DNA of 64,000 nt from Microgenomates group bacterium (GTDB lineage: Bacteria; Patescibacteriota; Microgenomatia; PFEM01; JBNASD01), in contig JBNASD010000001.1 of the NCBI GenBank assembly GCA_049720225.1, positions 164,733 through 228,732 of the forward strand, read 5' to 3'. The notes below the pieces were generated by a model. The model made no database searches. It was not told the origin of the DNA and saw only the letters and a program-made list of their open reading frames with translations. Each line of letters opens with the position of its first letter. Position 1 is the stretch's first letter. Made by a program: the position numbers and the translations under genes. Below are positions 1,764 through 8,932 of this stretch, piece by piece.

Positions 1764-4640
1764 ATGAAAAAGTCTATCCTAAATAATGTAGGAAGATTTT
1801 TTCTTTTATTATTTACTTTTTTTCTTTTCTTAATTTCCTCAAAATCTGTTTCTGCTCTTTGGAATAAATATCCAAGCAATCCAATTTTTTCGGGAACGCC
1901 AGGAGGATGGGATAGCAGAGATACATCTTGCCCATATATAATTTTTAATGGAAATACCTACAAAATGTGGTATTCGGGAAATAATGGCAGTGGTTGGAGA
2001 ATAGGATATGCTACTTCATTAAATGGATTAATGTGGTATAAAGTAAATTATCCTGTAATAGATATATTTTCCCCTAATAATTGGGAAAAAGATACGGGAC
2101 ATTCTTTTGTTTTATACGAAGAAAATTTATATAAAATGTGGTACTCTTCAATTAGTTATTCATGGATTAGCGGCGAAGATCGGTATCGCCTTCGATATGC
2201 TACTTCTTTTGACGGAATAAATTGGGATGAAAAAGATTGGGTTTTAACTGGAAGTAAAGATAAATGGGATGCTGGCGGAATAAATAGAGGGCATTCTATT
2301 TTAAAAATAAACGGAATTTATCATCTATGGTATACAGGGACTGATGCCGGAACTAATTGGAGAATAGGATACGCAACATCTTTAGATGGAATCAGTTGGA
2401 CTAAGCAAAATAATTGTAATCCTGTGATTACTAAAACAGAAACGTGGGAATATAATAATGTAAGTTATCCTCACGTAATTTATAATAATGGGGTTTATGA
2501 AATGTGGTATGCTACTGGGGCAGGTGATTTACCAACAAGAATTGTTTATGCCTACTCTCTTGATGGAATACATTGGATTAAACCTGCAGATAAAAATCCG
2601 GTTTTAGAGGTAGGTCCATACGGATCTTGGGATAGTGTTAATATTAGTTCCCCTTTTGTCTTAAAAGAAGGTAATAAATATAAAATGTGGTATGATGGTT
2701 ATGATGGTAAACAGTGGCGAATTGGATATGCAGAAAGTATTGATGAAATAAATCCCACTCCTACTTTAAAACCTACACCTACTCCCACTTTTACTCCAAC
2801 TCCAACCCCCACCCCCACCCCTCTCCCCCCTCTTATTTTTCTTCCCGGATTAGGAGGGTCGTGGAATTTTGAAAGCTTAGTTTTGGGGATTGAAAAACCA
2901 TATAAAGAATGGGTAATTACACCTGGCCCAGGAGAAAAAGTCTATTATGGCTTTTTAAAAACCCTTAAAAATGCTGGTTATAATGATAACGGTCCTCAAA
3001 AAAACCTTTTTATCTTTACCTACAATTGGACCAAAAAGGTTTCTCAGATTGCCGAAGATCTTAAAGAGTTTATTCAAAATACCGTTAAACCTAAACCTGG
3101 GCAAAAAATTATTCTTGTCGGTCATAGTTTAGGGGGTTTAACCGCCAGAACTTATGTCCAAAACAATCCCCAAAATCAAGTTACCACCCTCCTTACTTTA
3201 GGTTCTCCCCACAAAGGAGCTGTTCAAGTATATTATGCCTGGGCAGGTGGTGATCTTCGCTTTATGAATATTTTAGAAAGAATTGCCGTTGGTTTACTTC
3301 TTCAAATTCGTCGTTCTGGTTTTAATACCGATAAAGAAACGGTTCAAAATATCGCTCCTGTTTTAAAAGATTTACTTCCAACTTTTAATTATTTAAAACA
3401 AAACAACCAAGAAATTCCATATCTTCAAATGATTGAAAAAAACGATTGGCTTGATAACCTTAATAACAATCCTCCCTCCAATCTTTTTTCTGGTTTTACT
3501 ACTCTTTTATCAAATATAGAAAATAGCACTCCCCGTTGGTTATTAGTAGAACCACGAAATTGGTTAGATAAAATTTTAAATCTTTGGTCCGATGGTAAAC
3601 CAGTAGGTGATCCAATTTTAGATACCGGCGATAGAACTGTTCTTTCTTTAAGCGCTCAACTTTCTGGTGCTCAACTAGTTGAACTTCAGGGTTTAGGTCA
3701 TCGAGAAATTGTCCAAACTCAAACTGGCCAAGAAAAAATTATGGAAATTTTAAACCTTAAACCCACTCCTTATTCTGTTTCTGAAGACATTTCTGAGCCA
3801 ATTTTAGTTTTTCTTATTGCTTCTCCGGCTACTTTAGAAATTTTTGACACTAAGGGAAACTCTGTTGGAGAAGGCGATGGAAAATTAATGTTTGTTTTTA
3901 ATCCCCAAGAAGGAAATTATCAGATTAAAATTACCGGTACCGGTAATGGACCTTATCAGCTCTATGTAGGCCAACTAACTAAAAACGGTGACATTTGGAG
4001 CGAAATTTCTGGCAAAATTAATCAGGGAGAAATCCAAATTAGAGAAGTTAATTTTCAACCCAATTCTCCCTTACCTTATCCTTTTGTTGATAATACTGGT
4101 GAAATTTCTTTACAATCTACAATCCAAAAAATTTTAGAAACAAAAGAATTTATTAACAATAATCTTCTCTCTCCTAAAATAAAGAAAAAATTAATTAGTT
4201 CTTTAAACGAAATTCTGGAATTAATCTCTCAAAAAAATTATCACCAAGCAATTACTACTTCTTATGAACTTCATCTTTATCTTGGCCGACTTTCTAAACA
4301 AAAAATTGTTCCTTCCTCAATCGTTATCTTTCTTAAAAATAAAATCATAGAAATTATTAACGATTTAGAAAAAGTTTATATTAAAAATCAGTCTTCCCCT
4401 TATTCCGATAAAAAATTAAAAACAGAAATTAAAATTGCCGAAAATCTCTCCCTTCAAATGGAGAAAAAACTTAAAAAATTTTCCCAAGCTACTTCTGAAG
4501 ATGGAGCTTTATATCTTTTAGCCAAAGAAAAACTTAATATTGCTAAAAATTCTTCTTCCCATCAAGCACATATTAATGCTTTAGGGGTAAAATATTTATC
4601 TTTAGAGGGAATTATTCTTTTTAACTCAGGAAATAATTAA
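1764..4640 (+). CDS. Secreted multidomain protein: signal peptide; 5-bladed beta-propeller glycoside-hydrolase-like domain (GH130/GH43/GH32-like repeats); Pro/Thr linker; alpha/beta-hydrolase lipase domain (GHSLGG); C-terminal helical domain
   Basis: N-terminal signal peptide (…SKSVSA|LWNK). Five repeats of W(D/E)..x..P.VI..G..YxMWYxG…RIGYAxSxDGIxW. PTPTLKPTPTPTFTPTPTPTPTP linker. IILVGHSLGGLTARTYV and TLGSPHKGA, a class-2 lipase/PGAP1-like nucleophile elbow. Confidence 0.6.
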   Translation: MKKSILNNVGRFFLLLFTFFLFLISSKSVSALWNKYPSNPIFSGTPGGWDSRDTSCPYIIFNGNTYKMWYSGNNGSGWRIGYATSLNGLMWYKVNYPVIDIFSPNNWEKDTGHSFVLYEENLYKMWYSSISYSWISGEDRYRLRYATSFDGINWDEKDWVLTGSKDKWDAGGINRGHSILKINGIYHLWYTGTDAGTNWRIGYATSLDGISWTKQNNCNPVITKTETWEYNNVSYPHVIYNNGVYEMWYATGAGDLPTRIVYAYSLDGIHWIKPADKNPVLEVGPYGSWDSVNISSPFVLKEGNKYKMWYDGYDGKQWRIGYAESIDEINPTPTLKPTPTPTFTPTPTPTPTPLPPLIFLPGLGGSWNFESLVLGIEKPYKEWVITPGPGEKVYYGFLKTLKNAGYNDNGPQKNLFIFTYNWTKKVSQIAEDLKEFIQNTVKPKPGQKIILVGHSLGGLTARTYVQNNPQNQVTTLLTLGSPHKGAVQVYYAWAGGDLRFMNILERIAVGLLLQIRRSGFNTDKETVQNIAPVLKDLLPTFNYLKQNNQEIPYLQMIEKNDWLDNLNNNPPSNLFSGFTTLLSNIENSTPRWLLVEPRNWLDKILNLWSDGKPVGDPILDTGDRTVLSLSAQLSGAQLVELQGLGHREIVQTQTGQEKIMEILNLKPTPYSVSEDISEPILVFLIASPATLEIFDTKGNSVGEGDGKLMFVFNPQEGNYQIKITGTGNGPYQLYVGQLTKNGDIWSEISGKINQGEIQIREVNFQPNSPLPYPFVDNTGEISLQSTIQKILETKEFINNNLLSPKIKKKLISSLNEILELISQKNYHQAITTSYELHLYLGRLSKQKIVPSSIVIFLKNKIIEIINDLEKVYIKNQSSPYSDKKLKTEIKIAENLSLQMEKKLKKFSQATSEDGALYLLAKEKLNIAKNSSSHQAHINALGVKYLSLEGIILFNSGNN
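2761..2835 (+). repeat. Pro/Thr-codon (ACY-CCN) simple repeat encoding the PTPTPT linker of the 958-aa protein
   Basis: cccactcctactttaaaacctacacctactcccacttttactccaactccaacccccacccccacccctctcccccctc. Confidence 0.7.
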
Positions 4641-5590
4641 TGAAAATTCTTAAAATTCGTGAACTTTTTATTGACGCTATCCGAAGTTTTTTTAAATCTC
4701 AAGGTTTTACCGAGGTAGATACTCCTTTATTGGTAACCGCCCCCGACCCTTCTCCTTTTAATGAAGTTTTTGAGGTTCATTCAATTACCGGCCAAAAATT
4801 TTATCTTACTCCTTCTCCCGAATTTTTTATGAAAAAACTTTTAGCTAATAATTCAGGTAATATTTTTCAAATTTGTAAAGCTTTTCGTGACGGCCAAATC
4901 GGTCCTCTTCACAACCCTGAATTTACCATTCTTGAGTGGTACCGTATAAATGCCAATTATTACGATATTATGGTTGATTGCGAAAATTTAATTGATTATT
5001 TAATAAAAAAACTCTCTCCATTTAAAATCTTAAATTTAAAATTTAAAATTATTCATCCTTGGCCAAGAATTTCTATTAAAGAAGCCTTTCAAAAATATGC
5101 CAAGATTGATTTAGATGAATTTCTTGATTTAAATTATGCTCGCCAAATTTGCCAGCAACACGGCTATCAAGTAAATAAAACCGATACGTGGGAACAACTT
5201 TATCACCAAATTTTTTTAAACGAAATTGAACCAAAACTTCCTTCTGGTACCCCATTAATTTTATATGACTATCCTGCACCATTAGCGGCCTTGGCTCGCC
5301 TTAAAAAAGACAACCCTAATTATGCGGAAAGGTTTGAATTCTATTTAAATGGGATTGAAATAGGTAACGGTTATAGCGAACTTAATGATTCTTCCGAACA
5401 ACGAAAAAGATTAATCAATGACCTTAAAATAAGAAAAAAATTGGGGATGCGTCTTTTTCCTCTTGACGAAGAGTTTGTTAAAGCAGTAGGTAAAATGCCA
5501 CCAACCGGAGGAATTGCGGTGGGAGTTGATCGATTAATGATGACTCTTATTGGGAAGAAAAAAATTGATCCCACCTTCCCTTTTAATTAA
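4640..5590 (+). CDS. epmA: Elongation factor P--(R)-beta-lysine ligase (EpmA/PoxA/GenX; class II LysRS paralog lacking the anticodon-binding domain)
   Basis: 316 aa; starts directly in the class II catalytic core (…FRDGQIGPLHNPEFTILEWYR, motif 2; GIAVGVDRL, motif 3); no N-terminal OB domain; immediately upstream of efp. Confidence 0.7.
   Translation: MKILKIRELFIDAIRSFFKSQGFTEVDTPLLVTAPDPSPFNEVFEVHSITGQKFYLTPSPEFFMKKLLANNSGNIFQICKAFRDGQIGPLHNPEFTILEWYRINANYYDIMVDCENLIDYLIKKLSPFKILNLKFKIIHPWPRISIKEAFQKYAKIDLDEFLDLNYARQICQQHGYQVNKTDTWEQLYHQIFLNEIEPKLPSGTPLILYDYPAPLAALARLKKDNPNYAERFEFYLNGIEIGNGYSELNDSSEQRKRLINDLKIRKKLGMRLFPLDEEFVKAVGKMPPTGGIAVGVDRLMMTLIGKKKIDPTFPFN
5025..5052. repeat. Heptanucleotide tandem repeat (AAATTTA-like x4) inside epmA
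   Basis: aaatctt aaattta aaattta aaattat; encodes KILNLKFKII. Confidence 0.6.
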
Positions 5591-5648
5591 AATCAAAAAT
5601 TGACATTTTTTGCCAGGTGTCCAAAATTGTCAATTAATTAATTTTTTA

Positions 5649-5677
5649 TTGTCTATTTTTATTTTTTATGATAGAAT
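5649..5677 (+). promoter_or_regulatory. Candidate promoter TTGTCT-N17-TAGAAT; the -10 ends 7 nt before the efp ATG, so a possible leaderless mRNA
   Basis: Hexamers read directly; no Shine-Dalgarno between the -10 and ATG 5685. Confidence 0.3.
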
Positions 5678-5684
5678 TTCTCCT

Positions 5685-6242
5685 ATGATCGAAAGTGGAC
5701 AACTCAAAAAAGGAATGTGTATTCTTTTTCGAGGAGAACCTCATTTGGTAATTGATAAAACCTTTGTTTCCCCCGGAAAAGGCTCGGCCTTTACTCGGGC
5801 TAAATTAAGAAATATCAAAACCGGCGCGGTTTTAGAATTTACCTTTAAATCAGGAGAAAAAATTGAAGAAGCAGAAGTTAATACCTTAGAATTTCAATAT
5901 CTTTACCAGCAAGGAGAGGAGTATTTTTTTATGAATCCGCGAAATTTTGAGCAAATTTCTCTCTCTCAAGATCTTATTGGCAATTTTTACCATTTTTTAA
6001 AAGAAGGAGAAACTTATAAAATTATGCTTTTTGAAAATCAGCCAATTACTCTTATTCCCCCTTTAAAAGTAAAGCTTAAAGTAATCGAAACCGAAGCAGG
6101 AGCAAAAGGCAATACCGTTACCGGTGCTACCAAACCAGCAAAAACGGAAACTGGTTATATCGTTCAAGTTCCTTTATTTATTAAAGAAGGAGATACAATT
6201 ATTGTTAATACCGAAACTGGAGAATATGTAAGTAGAATATAA
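5685..6242 (+). CDS. efp: Translation elongation factor P
   Basis: MIESGQLKKGMCILFRGEPHLVIDKTFVSPGKGSAFTRAKLRN aligns with the EF-P N-terminus, including the conserved PGKG loop lysine. 185 aa from ATG 5685; the ORF-track start at 5610 is an upstream extension. Confidence 0.85.
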   Translation: MIESGQLKKGMCILFRGEPHLVIDKTFVSPGKGSAFTRAKLRNIKTGAVLEFTFKSGEKIEEAEVNTLEFQYLYQQGEEYFFMNPRNFEQISLSQDLIGNFYHFLKEGETYKIMLFENQPITLIPPLKVKLKVIETEAGAKGNTVTGATKPAKTETGYIVQVPLFIKEGDTIIVNTETGEYVSRI

Positions 6243-6246
6243 AAAA

Positions 6247-6762
6247 ATGTTTTCCCCTGAAACCAAAGAAACTCCACCCTCAAAGACTCTAACTCTTGCT
6301 TACCAAAATACTTCTTTAAACATTAAAATAGAAACCAAAAAATCAACCCCTGAACAAGAAAAAAAGCCAAAATTACCTCAAGTAAAAGATGTTGTTATTT
6401 TTCCTCTTCCTTCTAAAAGGGATTTATCTCCAAAAGTTGGATTAGTGGTGGTAAATCAAGTAGATGATCCATATTTTTTTGGTTGGTTATTTGAAATTTC
6501 TCTTCCATCTGGTCAATCTTTTGAAAATTTTATTGCCGAAATTAGAAAATTCCCAACAACCTCTCTTGAATTAACCAATTCATATGAATCAGGAACATTA
6601 AATATACGAAATTTACCTGATTTAATTATTTTAGGTCAATTTGCGGGAGTAGATGATAAAAAAAAATTAGAAGAAATAATCAAGAGAACCAAATTAGAAG
6701 GATTACCAAAAGAATTATCAGAAAAAATAATGGAAAAAATATTAGGCTCTTATTTTTCTTAA
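6247..6762 (+). CDS. Hypothetical protein (171 aa), Lys/Glu/Pro-rich N-terminus; possibly co-transcribed with epmA-efp
   Basis: ORF begins 5 nt after the efp stop; no recognisable motifs. Confidence 0.4.
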   Translation: MFSPETKETPPSKTLTLAYQNTSLNIKIETKKSTPEQEKKPKLPQVKDVVIFPLPSKRDLSPKVGLVVVNQVDDPYFFGWLFEISLPSGQSFENFIAEIRKFPTTSLELTNSYESGTLNIRNLPDLIILGQFAGVDDKKKLEEIIKRTKLEGLPKELSEKIMEKILGSYFS

Positions 6763-6766
6763 ATTG

Positions 6767-7105
6767 CTAAATTTTTTCTCTATTAGCTAAATAATCTCTT
6801 GCGGCTTTTAAGAATTCTTGCTTTTTTTCTTCTTTTCTTTGAGGAGGGGGTACATTTTTTGACTCTAAGATTCCTATAACTAATTCTTTTACTCCTTTTA
6901 CTTCCCTTAAAGGTAAACCTGCCAAAATAGAAATAACGGGTACCGCTAGAAAAACTAATTTTTGAGGAATTCCATTTTTAATTAACCATTCGGAAAGTTT
7001 TAAAATATCTTCAATTTTTTCTCCTCTCCACTCTTCTACTCTCCTTAAGGCCAAAGGTAAGGGAATATCTCCCGAAGGTCCAAAATTTTTTCTTTCTATT
7101 TTCAT
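6767..7105 (-). CDS. Hypothetical small protein (112 aa) with one predicted TM segment
   Basis: ORF with central hydrophobic stretch LVFLAVPVISILAGLPL; lies directly downstream (minus strand) of the tRNA-Val and zinc-ribbon mini-ORF. Confidence 0.4.
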   Translation of the reverse strand: MKIERKNFGPSGDIPLPLALRRVEEWRGEKIEDILKLSEWLIKNGIPQKLVFLAVPVISILAGLPLREVKGVKELVIGILESKNVPPPQRKEEKKQEFLKAARDYLANREKI

Positions 7106-7180
7106 AATAAAAAATAAATAATAAAAAAGAAAATTGGCCTGGAGAAGAGATTAAGAAGGAGGATCAAGTTGGTTGATCGT

Positions 7181-7204
7181 GATGAGAACGCCGTTGTTCT
7201 CATC
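7181..7204. other. Perfect 9-bp stem hairpin GATGAGAAC-GCCGTT-GTTCTCATC inside the GC-rich island
   Basis: Inverted repeat read directly. Followed on the plus strand by a T-rich tract (TCCTTCTTT), so terminator-like in plus orientation, or a 3' stabilising stem-loop of the minus-strand mini-ORF transcript. Confidence 0.4.
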
Positions 7205-7256
7205 TCCTTCTTTAAAGCTCTCTTCCCCAGGCTCGCCGCCGGCCCATTAGGAAGTT

Positions 7257-7373
7257 TTACTTCTTCTCGCCCGTGCCCTTACAGGCGGGGCACACTTTCC
7301 CGTTTCGGGTTACGCCACCACTGCAGTGTGGACACTGAGTAGGAAGCTTCTGGTCATCGCCGTTTCTTCCCAT
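7257..7373 (-). CDS. Small zinc-ribbon protein (38 aa, two CxxC pairs; second pair CPACKGTG matches a DnaJ-like CxxCxGxG); GC-rich, strong SD
   Basis: Minus-strand RNA reads AAGGAGG-CAGACAT-ATG GGA AGA …: MGRNGDDQKLPTQCPHCSGGVTRNGKVCPACKGTGEKK*. GC3-rich codons (GGC, GCC, CCC, GAC) unlike every flanking gene. The ORF-track 62-aa version starts inside the tRNA gene (GGSNPS TΨC-arm artefact) and is over-extended. Confidence 0.4.
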   Translation of the reverse strand: MGRNGDDQKLPTQCPHCSGGVTRNGKVCPACKGTGEKK

Positions 7374-7408
7374 ATGTCTGCCTCCTTGGTTGGCGGGCCG
7401 GCGGCTAG

Positions 7409-7482
7409 TGGCCGATGAGGGATTCGAACCCCCGACCTCTCGCATGTGAAGCGAGCGCTCTAACCAACTGAGCCAATCGGCC
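7409..7482 (-). tRNA. tRNA-Val (anticodon CAC), 74 nt, CCA not encoded
   Basis: Manual cloverleaf: acceptor GGCCGAT/ATCGGCC, D-arm GCTC-AGTTGGTT-AGAGC, anticodon arm CTCGC-TTCACAT-GCGAG (C34 A35 C36), T-arm GGTCGGGGGTTCGAATCCCTC (stem GGGGG/CCCTC), discriminator A73. Confidence 0.85.
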
Positions 7483-7513
7483 AGGATAAAAAGTATCTTA
7501 TCAAATTTTCCTC

Positions 7514-7542
7514 TTGAAAATCAATATTTTATCTCTTAGAAT
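7514..7542 (+). promoter_or_regulatory. Candidate sigma70 promoter TTGAAA-N17-TAGAAT for lepB; ATG 9 nt after the -10 (leaderless or near-leaderless)
   Basis: Hexamers and spacing read directly; same TAGAAT -10 and geometry as the efp candidate promoter. Confidence 0.35.
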
Positions 7543-7551
7543 TAAATCATT

Positions 7552-8109
7552 ATGAGCTTCTTTAAAAAAATCGGTAAATTCTTTCTTGATCTTACAGAAA
7601 CAATTGTTATGGCTCTTTCTGTCTTTGTGGTTATTTATCTTTTTCTATTTCAACCCCATCAGGTACGAGGAAATTCAATGTATCCCAATTTCCACGATGG
7701 CGAATATATTCTTACTGATAAAATTACTTATCGCATGCGAGAACCTCGTCAGGGAGATGTAATTGTTTTTCGGGCTCCAAAAAACGAAGAGTATGATTAT
7801 ATAAAAAGAATTATTGCTGTTCCTGGAGACTGCTTAACTATTTCTAATGGAAAAGTGTATATTAATAATCAACTTTTTCCTGAACCTTATCTTCCCTCTG
7901 ATTATGTTACCAACCCTGGTTCCTTTATCCGCGCCAATACTCCTGTTTGCGTTCCTCCGGCTAATTATTTAGTAATGGGAGATAATCGTTCTCACAGTTC
8001 TGATTCTCGAGAGTGGGGATTTGTGCCGCGACAAAATATTATTGGTCGAGCGTGGTTTCGCTACTGGCCCCCTTCTCGGTGGGGACCGGTGGATAAGATT
8101 GACCGGTAA
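7552..8109 (+). CDS. lepB: Signal peptidase I (S26 family)
   Basis: N-terminal TM segment; catalytic Ser box GNSMYPNF; Lys box YIKRIIAVPGD; GDNRSHSSDSREWGFV; C-terminal …FRYWPP. Confidence 0.85.
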   Translation: MSFFKKIGKFFLDLTETIVMALSVFVVIYLFLFQPHQVRGNSMYPNFHDGEYILTDKITYRMREPRQGDVIVFRAPKNEEYDYIKRIIAVPGDCLTISNGKVYINNQLFPEPYLPSDYVTNPGSFIRANTPVCVPPANYLVMGDNRSHSSDSREWGFVPRQNIIGRAWFRYWPPSRWGPVDKIDR

Positions 8110-8932
8110 TTCCTTCGTAAATTTTCTTTAATCTTTCCTCAACTTCTTCTGGGGAACCTTTAAGAAAGATATTAATTCTTGTTTCTATTCTTGATTGAGA
8201 AACTTTAACAATTGTTTTTTCATTTCCTCCAATTGCTTTATGAAGATCATCTCTTACTCTATCAATTTCATCAGAAATAATTAAGGGAGCGCTCGCGTTA
8301 GGAAAAAGAGCCTTTGGTTGCTGACCAATTTTTTTTCTCATCCTTCTGGCTAAATCCTCTGTCGCTCTTACGGGTAATCCTTGACGAATAACAATTTTAT
8401 AAGCCTCAACCATTAACCGCGAATCAGCAATCATATTTAAAGCCCGCGCATGGCCTTCAGTAATTTGTCCGGAAAGTAATCCGTCTTTTAAAGCATCTGG
8501 TAATTTTAATAATGCCAATGAATTAGAAACATAAGCAGGACTTTTTCCGATTCTTTTAGCAATTTCTTTAGTCTCTAAACCAAACTCTTCTTTTAATCGT
8601 AAAAAAGCTTGCGCCCTTTCGATTGGATTTAAATCTTCCCTTTGAACATTTTCTACCAACGCCATTTCTAACATTCCTCGGGGGGTAGTTTCTTCAACAA
8701 TCGCCGGCACCGTTTTTAACCCCAATATTTTTGCCGCCCGCCACCGTCTTTCACCGGCAATAATTTGATATCCCGCCGGTGTCTTTGCCACCACTAATGG
8801 CTCAAGAATTCCATGTTCTCTAATTGACTCTACTAAATCCGCTAATGATTCCGGAGTAATTAATCCTCGTGGTTGTAAAGGGTTAGGTTGAAGTTGATCA
8901 ACTTCTATTTGAATTACTTGTTTATCAGCCAT
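8039..8932 (-). CDS. parB: ParB/Spo0J chromosome partitioning protein
   Basis: ParB box motifs …GILEPLVV…GYQIIAGERRWRAAKILGLKTVPAIV…, an HTH region, a C-terminal dimerisation tail. No parA adjacent. 3' end overlaps the lepB 3' end convergently by 71 nt. Confidence 0.8.
   Translation of the reverse strand: MADKQVIQIEVDQLQPNPLQPRGLITPESLADLVESIREHGILEPLVVAKTPAGYQIIAGERRWRAAKILGLKTVPAIVEETTPRGMLEMALVENVQREDLNPIERAQAFLRLKEEFGLETKEIAKRIGKSPAYVSNSLALLKLPDALKDGLLSGQITEGHARALNMIADSRLMVEAYKIVIRQGLPVRATEDLARRMRKKIGQQPKALFPNASAPLIISDEIDRVRDDLHKAIGGNEKTIVKVSQSRIETRINIFLKGSPEEVEERLKKIYEGITGQSYPPVPTEKGASSETTLDQ

Follow-up and report, generated by a model that had tools for sequence, protein, structure and literature searches.

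A putative foreign insertion carrying a zinc-ribbon-like mini-gene directly 3' of tRNA-Val(CAC) in a Microgenomates bacterium

The window analysed here is a 64-kb stretch of an AT-rich metagenome-assembled genome (MAG) from the Microgenomates group of the candidate phyla radiation (CPR). LepB, encoded at 7552-8109, assigns the host to this group, the best locus in GTDB (L001) being 73% identical. Next to LepB, on the minus strand, lies a tRNA-Val(CAC) gene, followed by a GC-rich island of ~270 bp (~7135-7407) and by ORF112, an open reading frame (ORF) for a conserved hypothetical protein. EF-P and ORF171 are the other neighbours. The island holds a mini-ORF of 38 codons led by a Shine–Dalgarno-like (SD) motif, an inverted repeat that brackets this mini-ORF, and a large hairpin termed D2 (Table 1). 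The initial annotation of this DNA had described the tRNA, the SD with its spacer, an ORF with two CxxC pairs and an exact CxxCxGxG, a perfect inverted repeat, a 9-bp hairpin at 7181-7204 and a CCUCCUU element at 7156-7162. ARAGORN and Rfam agreed on the tRNA, and all of the other features were found where they had been placed. D2 as a self-contained unit had not been recognized.

Table 1. Features of the tRNA-Val locus and corresponding sites in related loci (window coordinates unless a locus is named).
Feature	Position	Strand	Remarks
Candidate promoter of the tRNA-Val unit	7495-7524	minus	read by eye; tentative
tRNA-Val(CAC)	7408/7409-7482	minus	ARAGORN; Rfam RF00005, 71.8 bits; CCA not encoded
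Left arm of 11-bp perfect GC inverted repeat, GCCGCCGGCCC	7395-7405	minus	predicted pairing probability ~1.0
SD-like motif AAGGAGG	7381-7387	minus	7-nt spacer to ATG
Mini-ORF, 38 codons and TAA stop	7257-7373	minus	single CPxC...CPxCxGxG zinc-ribbon module (predicted)
Right arm of 11-bp GC inverted repeat, GGGCCGGCGGC	7235-7245	minus	11 nt after mini-ORF stop
D2, Y-shaped hairpin of 99 nt with 37 bp	7135-7233	minus	predicted minimum free energy -51.7 kcal/mol, same structure as centroid; z = -8.3
U-rich tract CAAUUUUCUUUUUUAUUAUUUAUUUUUUAUU	7106-7134	minus	between D2 and ORF112 start
ORF112, conserved hypothetical	6767-7105	minus	ATG at 7105; homologues in relatives; NCBI ACPLKP_00975
tRNA-Val to ORF112 junctions	L117:707-718; L082:80-91; L081:2324-2353; window 7105		
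Partial tRNA-Val halves in related loci	first ~100 nt 3' of tRNA-Val	minus	L010, L015, L018/L032, L091, L097, L106, L133, L141

The mean GC content of the window is 0.307, compared with a peak of 0.64 per 100 nt in the island, and composition shifts abruptly at the 3' end of the tRNA. The description of the island as the only GC-rich stretch holds for sequence outside long ORFs; 13 other stretches of at least 100 nt reach 50-57% GC, every one of them within a long ORF. The codon usage of the mini-ORF had been called unlike that of its neighbours, and the GC content at third codon positions (GC3) bears this out. It is 0.63 in the mini-ORF, 0.18 in ORF112, 0.14 in ORF171 and on average 0.21 (standard deviation 0.03) in 45 long host ORFs, and none of 17,302 host windows of 38 codons matched the mini-ORF value. 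An SD-like motif was absent upstream of 42 of the 51 window ORFs of at least 150 amino acids (start-site calling was crude, the trend strong), a pattern that suggests SD-independent initiation in this Microgenomates lineage. As host genes mostly lack an SD, the textbook AAGGAGG of the mini-ORF is also alien in style.

The mini-ORF starts with an ATG at 7373, 35 nt past the tRNA, codes over 7373-7260 and stops at 7259-7257. Its product is MGRNGDDQKLPTQCPHCSGGVTRNGKVCPACKGTGEKK. The SD, the ATG, all four Cys residues (C14, C17, C28 and C31, read directly from the sequence), the knuckle Gly residues and the stop codon are intact. Dinucleotide-preserving shuffles of the 274-nt island served as controls. 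An ATG ORF of at least 30 codons was present in 49% of 20,000 shuffles, so that the ORF by itself carries no meaning. At least two CxxC pairs were encoded in a single one of the 20,000 shuffles, and none combined two such pairs with an SD at the proper spacing. On balance, the mini-ORF resembles a true coding sequence, whose product would be a zinc ribbon of one module, and it may be coding at present or have been so until recently. Exact look-ups found it in no protein collection. The NCBI accessions of ORF171 (MGB9911155) and LepB (MGB9911157) leave room only for ORF112 between them, and the mini-ORF is thus presumed to be unannotated.

The peptide fits the generic zinc-ribbon pattern, in which two CxxC knuckles stand ~10-20 residues apart. 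It has two CPxC knuckles with a Gly after each, one an exact CxxCxGxG (CPACKGTG) and one partial (CPHCSGGV); metal binding is predicted only. Its matches in profile libraries were all under the curated thresholds, yet they consistently pointed to one module. The best was phrog_3931, a 59-amino-acid phage family of unknown function (E = 2.7e-6). It was followed by RtpA/anti-TRAP (NF058604; E = 8.5e-5, 22.6 bits against a cut-off of 65), DZR_2 (E = 3e-4), DnaJ_CXXCXGXG (PF00684; E = 0.013, 16.1 bits against a gathering threshold of 32.7) and PF15777 (13.9 bits); at these scores the peptide is a member of neither RtpA nor PF00684. Among 1.84 billion representative proteins, HMMER detected 21 matches at E < 1e-3 and no full-length orthologue. 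Nearly all of the 21 are multi-repeat proteins built from CPxCxGxG-x(5-7)-CPxCxGxG units, such as ICPECKGGGFVGGKVCPKCKGT in P0004, and they include one two-module protein of 61 amino acids. The spacing CPxCxGG-x5-GKVCPxCKG is common to the peptide and these matches. Among PDB structures, gapless alignments of the zinc module were obtained with anti-TRAP (3lcz, 2bx9) and with the cysteine-rich domain of DnaJ (1exk), at weak E values of 0.03-0.3. In the alignment to anti-TRAP, over residues 9-35, only the zinc module aligns.

The minus-strand RNA of 7125-7410 was predicted to fold at -127 kcal/mol (z = -8.0). Folding of the plus strand was just as favourable (z = -8 for either strand), and energy alone therefore cannot choose between them. 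The predicted structure consists of two domains, D1 (7232-7408) and D2. D1 is the SD-ORF unit, clamped by an 11-14 bp GC helix that corresponds to the inverted repeat. On the minus strand, a CUA separates the tRNA from the left arm, and with the left arm extended to 7408 the repeat reaches 14 nt with one mismatch. A perfect inverted repeat of at least 11 bp occurred in 27 of 3000 shuffles of the island. With its clamp, D1 has a z of -3.9. Its interior of 149 nt, with the SD and the ORF, shows no significant excess of structure (z = -1.6; equalled by 13 of 200 shuffles). The excess structure lies in the bracketing repeat and D2. The SD is mostly paired in the predicted ensemble, with a mean probability of being unpaired of 0.31.

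D2 has a basal stem of 14 bp, including one G-U pair that is a C-A mismatch on the plus strand; the two bases of the hairpin read GCCUGG and CCAGGC. Above it lie a middle stem of 8 bp, AGAAGGAG/CUCCUUCU, and two apical hairpins, the 9-bp hairpin already described and one of 6 bp. The fold was retained in a calculation at 70 °C. D2 leads into the U-rich tract and then into the ORF112 ATG. A terminator scan with a loop limit of 3-8 nt was unable to score D2. Nevertheless, a GC-rich stem and a U-rich tract are both present, the U run being offset by 3 nt, and the predicted arrangement resembles a terminator. D2 also contains a 33-codon ORF (7102-7203, minus strand), whose AUG lies directly after AAGAAGGAG and whose UGA overlaps the ORF112 start (AUGA), an arrangement that resembles translational coupling. 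The spacing from SD to AUG is essentially zero here, and this ORF is probably spurious.

The initial annotation had proposed that CCUCCUU, located 3' of the mini-ORF, pairs with the SD across the 11-bp helix in a pseudoknot. As a riboregulator of this kind, the island would control translation of the mini-ORF. The two 7-mers are perfectly complementary and their duplex would yield -10.6 kcal/mol before any pseudoknot penalty. The folding calculations point the other way. In the middle stem of D2, CCUCCUU makes up the 3' side of a helix of 8-9 bp, with AAGAAGGAG (7212-7204) opposite. Its pairing probability there is ~1, and its release would cost 11.8 kcal/mol. Moreover, the SD has a closer partner, GCUUCCU, within the ORF. 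With the supposed anti-SD locked locally in D2, this is the least probable of the explanations considered here.

The locus was compared with related loci from GTDB and from metagenomes. The divergent pair of tRNA-Val(CAC) on the minus strand and LepB on the plus strand was found in 17 of 23 GTDB loci and in ~66 of 80 loci from metagenomes. None of the ~100 related loci that keep this pair contains the island; none has the mini-ORF behind its tRNA-Val, and no locus examined has a GC island of several hundred base pairs 3' of this tRNA. Instead, the sequence 3' of tRNA-Val varies from lineage to lineage. EF-P ends close to the tRNA in L001 and in several loci of 76-79% identity, with 8-10 nt between its stop codon and the tRNA 3' end. 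ORF112 homologues, recovered by tblastn on the fetched loci, occur in L117 and L082 (40% identity) and in L081 (36%); the start lies 10 nt after the tRNA-Val 3' end in L117 and 28 nt after it in L081. The junctions thus mark tRNA-Val directly followed by ORF112 as the apparent ancestral arrangement in the subclade, and the island as an apparent lineage-specific insertion of ~270 bp into the tRNA-to-ORF112 spacer. A spacer of 10-28 nt leaves no room for a separate promoter, which implies a tRNA–mRNA co-transcript. For the ORF112 family such a co-transcript would be obligatory, and would need to be separated by tRNA 3' processing.

An assembly artefact was weighed against this comparison. The post-tRNA-Val sequence of a higher-GC community member could have been stitched in at shared tRNA k-mers. 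tRNA genes are classic junctions of chimeric assemblies, at the 3' end of the tRNA the composition breaks sharply, and the island is absent from all relatives. However, the contig reverts to host sequence 270 bp later, at the very start of the conserved ORF112, so that a second shared junction would be needed, and none is evident. Both flanks are syntenic with relatives, and the peptide and its DNA were found in no other genome or metagenome searched. A chimera is accordingly judged highly improbable.

Partial tRNA-Val 3' halves, running from the anticodon or T arm to the acceptor end, were found right after the intact tRNA-Val in several lineages (Table 1). Such halves are the classic footprint of site-specific integration and thus point to the tRNA-Val 3' flank as a hot spot. 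A recurring motif resembling CAGGCGGG often stands ahead of them, and together these features suggest a family of integrative elements that uses tRNA-Val(CAC) as attB. The reverse complement of the motif, CCCGCCTG, occurs once in the window, within the mini-ORF (~7285), probably by chance. A separate observation concerns small GC-rich palindromic hairpins within or beside tRNA-Val in the CPR relatives L011 (3801-3897), L015 and L129/L130. In L011, CCTGCCTGCCGGCAGGCAGG lies inside the tRNA, which ARAGORN called 'tRNA-???', while L015 and L129 have hairpins with GCAA loops. These hairpins may be introns or mobile GC palindromes.

Further copies and homologues of the island were sought in several collections. 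Neither the rest of the window nor 160 related loci yielded another copy of the island, of D2 or of the peptide. A search for a second copy of the island in the 64 kb and in 453 kb of relatives was likewise negative, and a single-sequence covariance model of D2 retrieved no second copy from the window or 100 related loci. Matches at 24.65-24.78 kb were rejected as weak and as part of ordinary coding sequence. In viral contigs, the inverted-repeat pattern at the right spacing matched twice, by chance, inside high-GC phage genes, and the D2-stem pattern did not match. Against phages and plasmids, blastn with the island found nothing and tblastn with the peptide gave insignificant matches only. 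Back-translated scans and 8-residue patterns did not detect the peptide in GTDB species representatives, JGI metagenomes or IMG/VR. The scan with Rfam covariance models that the initial annotation had called for returned only the tRNA at the gathering thresholds of Rfam 15; over 7000-7600 at E <= 10 it gave noise only, at no more than 22 bits.

These results bear on the suggestion that the island is non-coding and its ORF fortuitous, D1 and D2 being either GC-rich palindromic DNA akin to miniature inverted-repeat transposable elements (MITEs) and repetitive extragenic palindromic (REP) elements or a structured non-coding RNA. In AT-rich genomes, a GC-rich island often turns out to be an RNA gene. 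The strong predicted folding of both strands, the 11-14 bp terminal inverted repeat, the dense pairing and low z of D2 and the palindromes at tRNA-Val in L011, L015 and L129 all fit such an element, as does the frequency of ORFs of at least 30 codons in shuffled sequence. Against it stand the failure of every shuffle to produce the SD with two CxxC pairs, and the gapless match of the peptide to real zinc modules. The part of the island that contains the ORF is the part that is not significantly structured. In addition, there is no Rfam match even at the permissive threshold, no second copy in the sequences searched and no target-site duplication. A selfish or structural element, and with it the structured RNA of the initial annotation, is thus regarded as unlikely.

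The explanation preferred here, with about an even chance of being right, is that foreign DNA was recently inserted at the tRNA-Val hot spot, bringing in a complete zinc-ribbon mini-gene, its GC-repeat bracket and the large hairpin with U tract. Two proposals of the initial annotation are taken up in it. That of a horizontally acquired micro-island is the best supported, through the absence of the island from relatives, the short ancestral spacer and the alien codons and SD, although it lacks an integrase and a duplicated tRNA end. That of a co-transcribed small metal-binding protein is plausible in that the ORF is coding-like and relatives imply co-transcription; its regulation by SD and anti-SD is unsupported. 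The whole unit would be transcribed from the tRNA-Val promoter, as is predicted for the tRNA-ORF112 co-transcript in relatives. Processing of the tRNA 3' end would then free an RNA in which the GC helix clamps the 5' and 3' ends together and so may confer stability. The peptide could be translated by way of its own SD if the host ribosome uses one, and the hairpin with its U tract could serve as a terminator or stabilizer that also limits read-through into ORF112.

Several results weigh against this explanation. The island is a singleton, and the peptide had no homologue among 5.8 billion proteins in a word index. This rules out analyses of synonymous versus non-synonymous change and of covariation, and leaves purifying selection without support. 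No donor was identified in the collections searched. There is no integrase beside the insert, as neither ORF112 nor ORF171 has a recombinase match in Pfam, PHROG or PADLOC. No target-site duplication was seen at the island flanks, and neither a second copy of the 23-nt tRNA 3' end (with up to three mismatches) nor one of the T-arm 11-mer occurs in the 64 kb. Translation is also uncertain: the predicted ensemble has both the SD and the AUG mostly paired, and the host is seemingly not reliant on SDs. D2 is far larger than usual terminators, and the U tract does not begin until 3 nt past its stem. Finally, AlphaFold on the lone peptide was uninformative, with a predicted local distance difference test (pLDDT) score of 65 that is too low for a fold search.

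An alternative is an inert relic of the same foreign insertion. Here the island would be a decaying leftover of integration or recombination with neither protein nor function, its structure simply donor sequence, for example a donor terminator. The singleton status and missing conservation, the scars at the hot spot in relatives, the loss of any integrase or att repeat, the mostly sequestered SD and a host that does not rely on SDs are consistent with this. Nevertheless, the SD, the ATG, the four Cys, the knuckle Gly residues and the stop are all intact. A neutral insert with a GC3 of 0.63 should decay fast in a genome with a GC3 of 0.21, so it would have to be either very recent or maintained. 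A relic is considered rather unlikely, yet the likeliest of the alternatives.

A more ambitious version of the insertion was also considered, in which the island is the first sighted copy of a new miniature mobile cassette of CPR bacteria. Such a cassette would comprise an SD-led zinc-ribbon micro-gene bracketed by inverted repeats and a Y-shaped hairpin at which recombination or processing takes place. The cassette would home in on the tRNA-Val 3' flank and be expressed from the tRNA promoter, and its micro-protein would act on host or partner machinery in the manner of anti-TRAP. This is decidedly improbable.

As a sequence feature the island is genuine: a foreign micro-gene, present as a singleton, at a tRNA hot spot. 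With one copy, no conservation and no donor, it is a curiosity for now and not a new conserved system, and no conserved or novel mechanism is indicated. If the mini-gene is expressed, a CPR bacterium would possess a zinc-ribbon micro-protein that annotation has missed, and the locus would be a clear case of foreign DNA taken up within a co-transcription unit of tRNA and mRNA. Both would bear on gene acquisition by the reduced AT-rich genomes of episymbionts and on their hidden small proteome. The setting is of some interest in itself. Across Microgenomates, the tRNA-Val 3' flank emerges as a hot spot of varying content, and a distance of just 10 nt separates a conserved gene from the tRNA before it.

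The candidate promoter upstream of tRNA-Val consists of TTGATT (7524-7519), an 18-nt spacer that ends in TGA and TAAGAT (7500-7495), that is TTGATT-18-TGnTAAGAT. The TAAGAT lies 12 nt ahead of the tRNA 5' end, and the score of 8/12 is under the reporting limit of the promoter scan. On the other side of the island, ORF112 is host-like in composition, as judged from its GC3, and its family has no Pfam, NCBIfam or PHROG assignment. In the word-indexed protein database ORF112 and ORF171 are both singletons. ORF171 (6247-6762, plus strand) lies between EF-P and ORF112 and was not found in any related locus. With a GC3 that is wholly host-like, it appears to be a lineage-specific orphan gene adjoining the hot spot.

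Two further observations were made in the surroundings. A paralogue of lysyl-tRNA synthetase resembling EpmA/GenX is encoded directly upstream of EF-P (4640-6242, plus strand), and EF-P carries a PGKG loop. This pair is conserved in L001 and in the closest metagenome loci, which suggests beta-lysylation of EF-P in this CPR lineage. The convergent genes for LepB (plus strand) and ParB (minus strand) overlap at their 3' ends by 71 nt (8039-8109) within a locally GC-rich segment (7976-8143). L001 also shows an overlap of these genes, of 26 nt.

The island was compared with known systems, several of which were rejected. A tmRNA (transfer-messenger RNA), whether in one piece or in two, was dismissed, and ARAGORN found none in the window. 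The RNA of the signal recognition particle, 6S RNA and RNase P RNA were rejected as well. The junction of D2 has almost no unpaired core, at odds with a hammerhead-type three-way junction, and on inspection its base carries no attC core sites (RYYYAAC ... GTTRRRY) of an integron gene cassette. For the peptide, a remnant of the TnpB zinc finger was discarded on account of the wrong Cys spacing and the absence of an OrfB_Zn_ribbon match. Ribosomal protein L36 is similar in length but differs in Cys/His pattern and charge.

Among structural elements, D2 shares with Rho-independent terminators a GC-rich basal stem of 14 bp and a U-rich tract behind it. It differs in its 99 nt, its branching and the 3-nt offset of the U run, and any terminator activity is putative. 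Mobile GC clusters and double-hairpin elements are described from AT-rich organelle genomes (PMC4478555). Like these and like MITEs and REP-like elements, the island consists of GC palindromic modules in AT-rich intergenic DNA. Terminal inverted repeats and two adjacent hairpin domains are further features that it shares with all of these. In contrast to them, it is single-copy within the 64-kb window, lacks a target-site duplication and has a protein-like ORF with an SD.

Genomic islets at tRNA 3' ends offer a closer parallel. The island likewise lies directly 3' of a tRNA, is foreign in composition and is absent from relatives, and its site bears tRNA-fragment scars in other lineages. It is nevertheless only ~270 bp long and has neither an integrase nor a direct repeat of the tRNA end.

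At the protein level, the second knuckle of the peptide has the exact CxxCxGxG of the DnaJ cysteine-rich module. Anti-TRAP (RtpA), a protein of 53 amino acids, has the same CPxC-x10-CPxCxGxG spacing and aligns to the peptide without gaps over the zinc site (3lcz, 2bx9). The island peptide, in comparison, has 38 amino acids, no C-terminal helix and a first knuckle of the form CxxCxGGV, and the island has no TRAP or trp context. The haloarchaeal CPxCG proteins are one-domain zinc-finger micro-proteins (PMC6562870). Such micro-proteins, and phrog_3931, resemble the peptide in standing alone, in having fewer than 60 amino acids and in carrying two CPxC knuckles. The peptide differs in having no demonstrable orthology to them, in its CPR host and in a gene that is bracketed by a GC inverted repeat within a tRNA co-transcription unit.

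Overall, the island falls outside Rfam, PF00684, RtpA, att-bounded islands, multi-copy MITEs and attC cassettes, while it does show the zinc-ribbon pattern and terminal inverted repeats. Its closest known kinds are tRNA genomic islets and the one-domain zinc-finger micro-proteins, for which anti-TRAP is the nearest solved structure.

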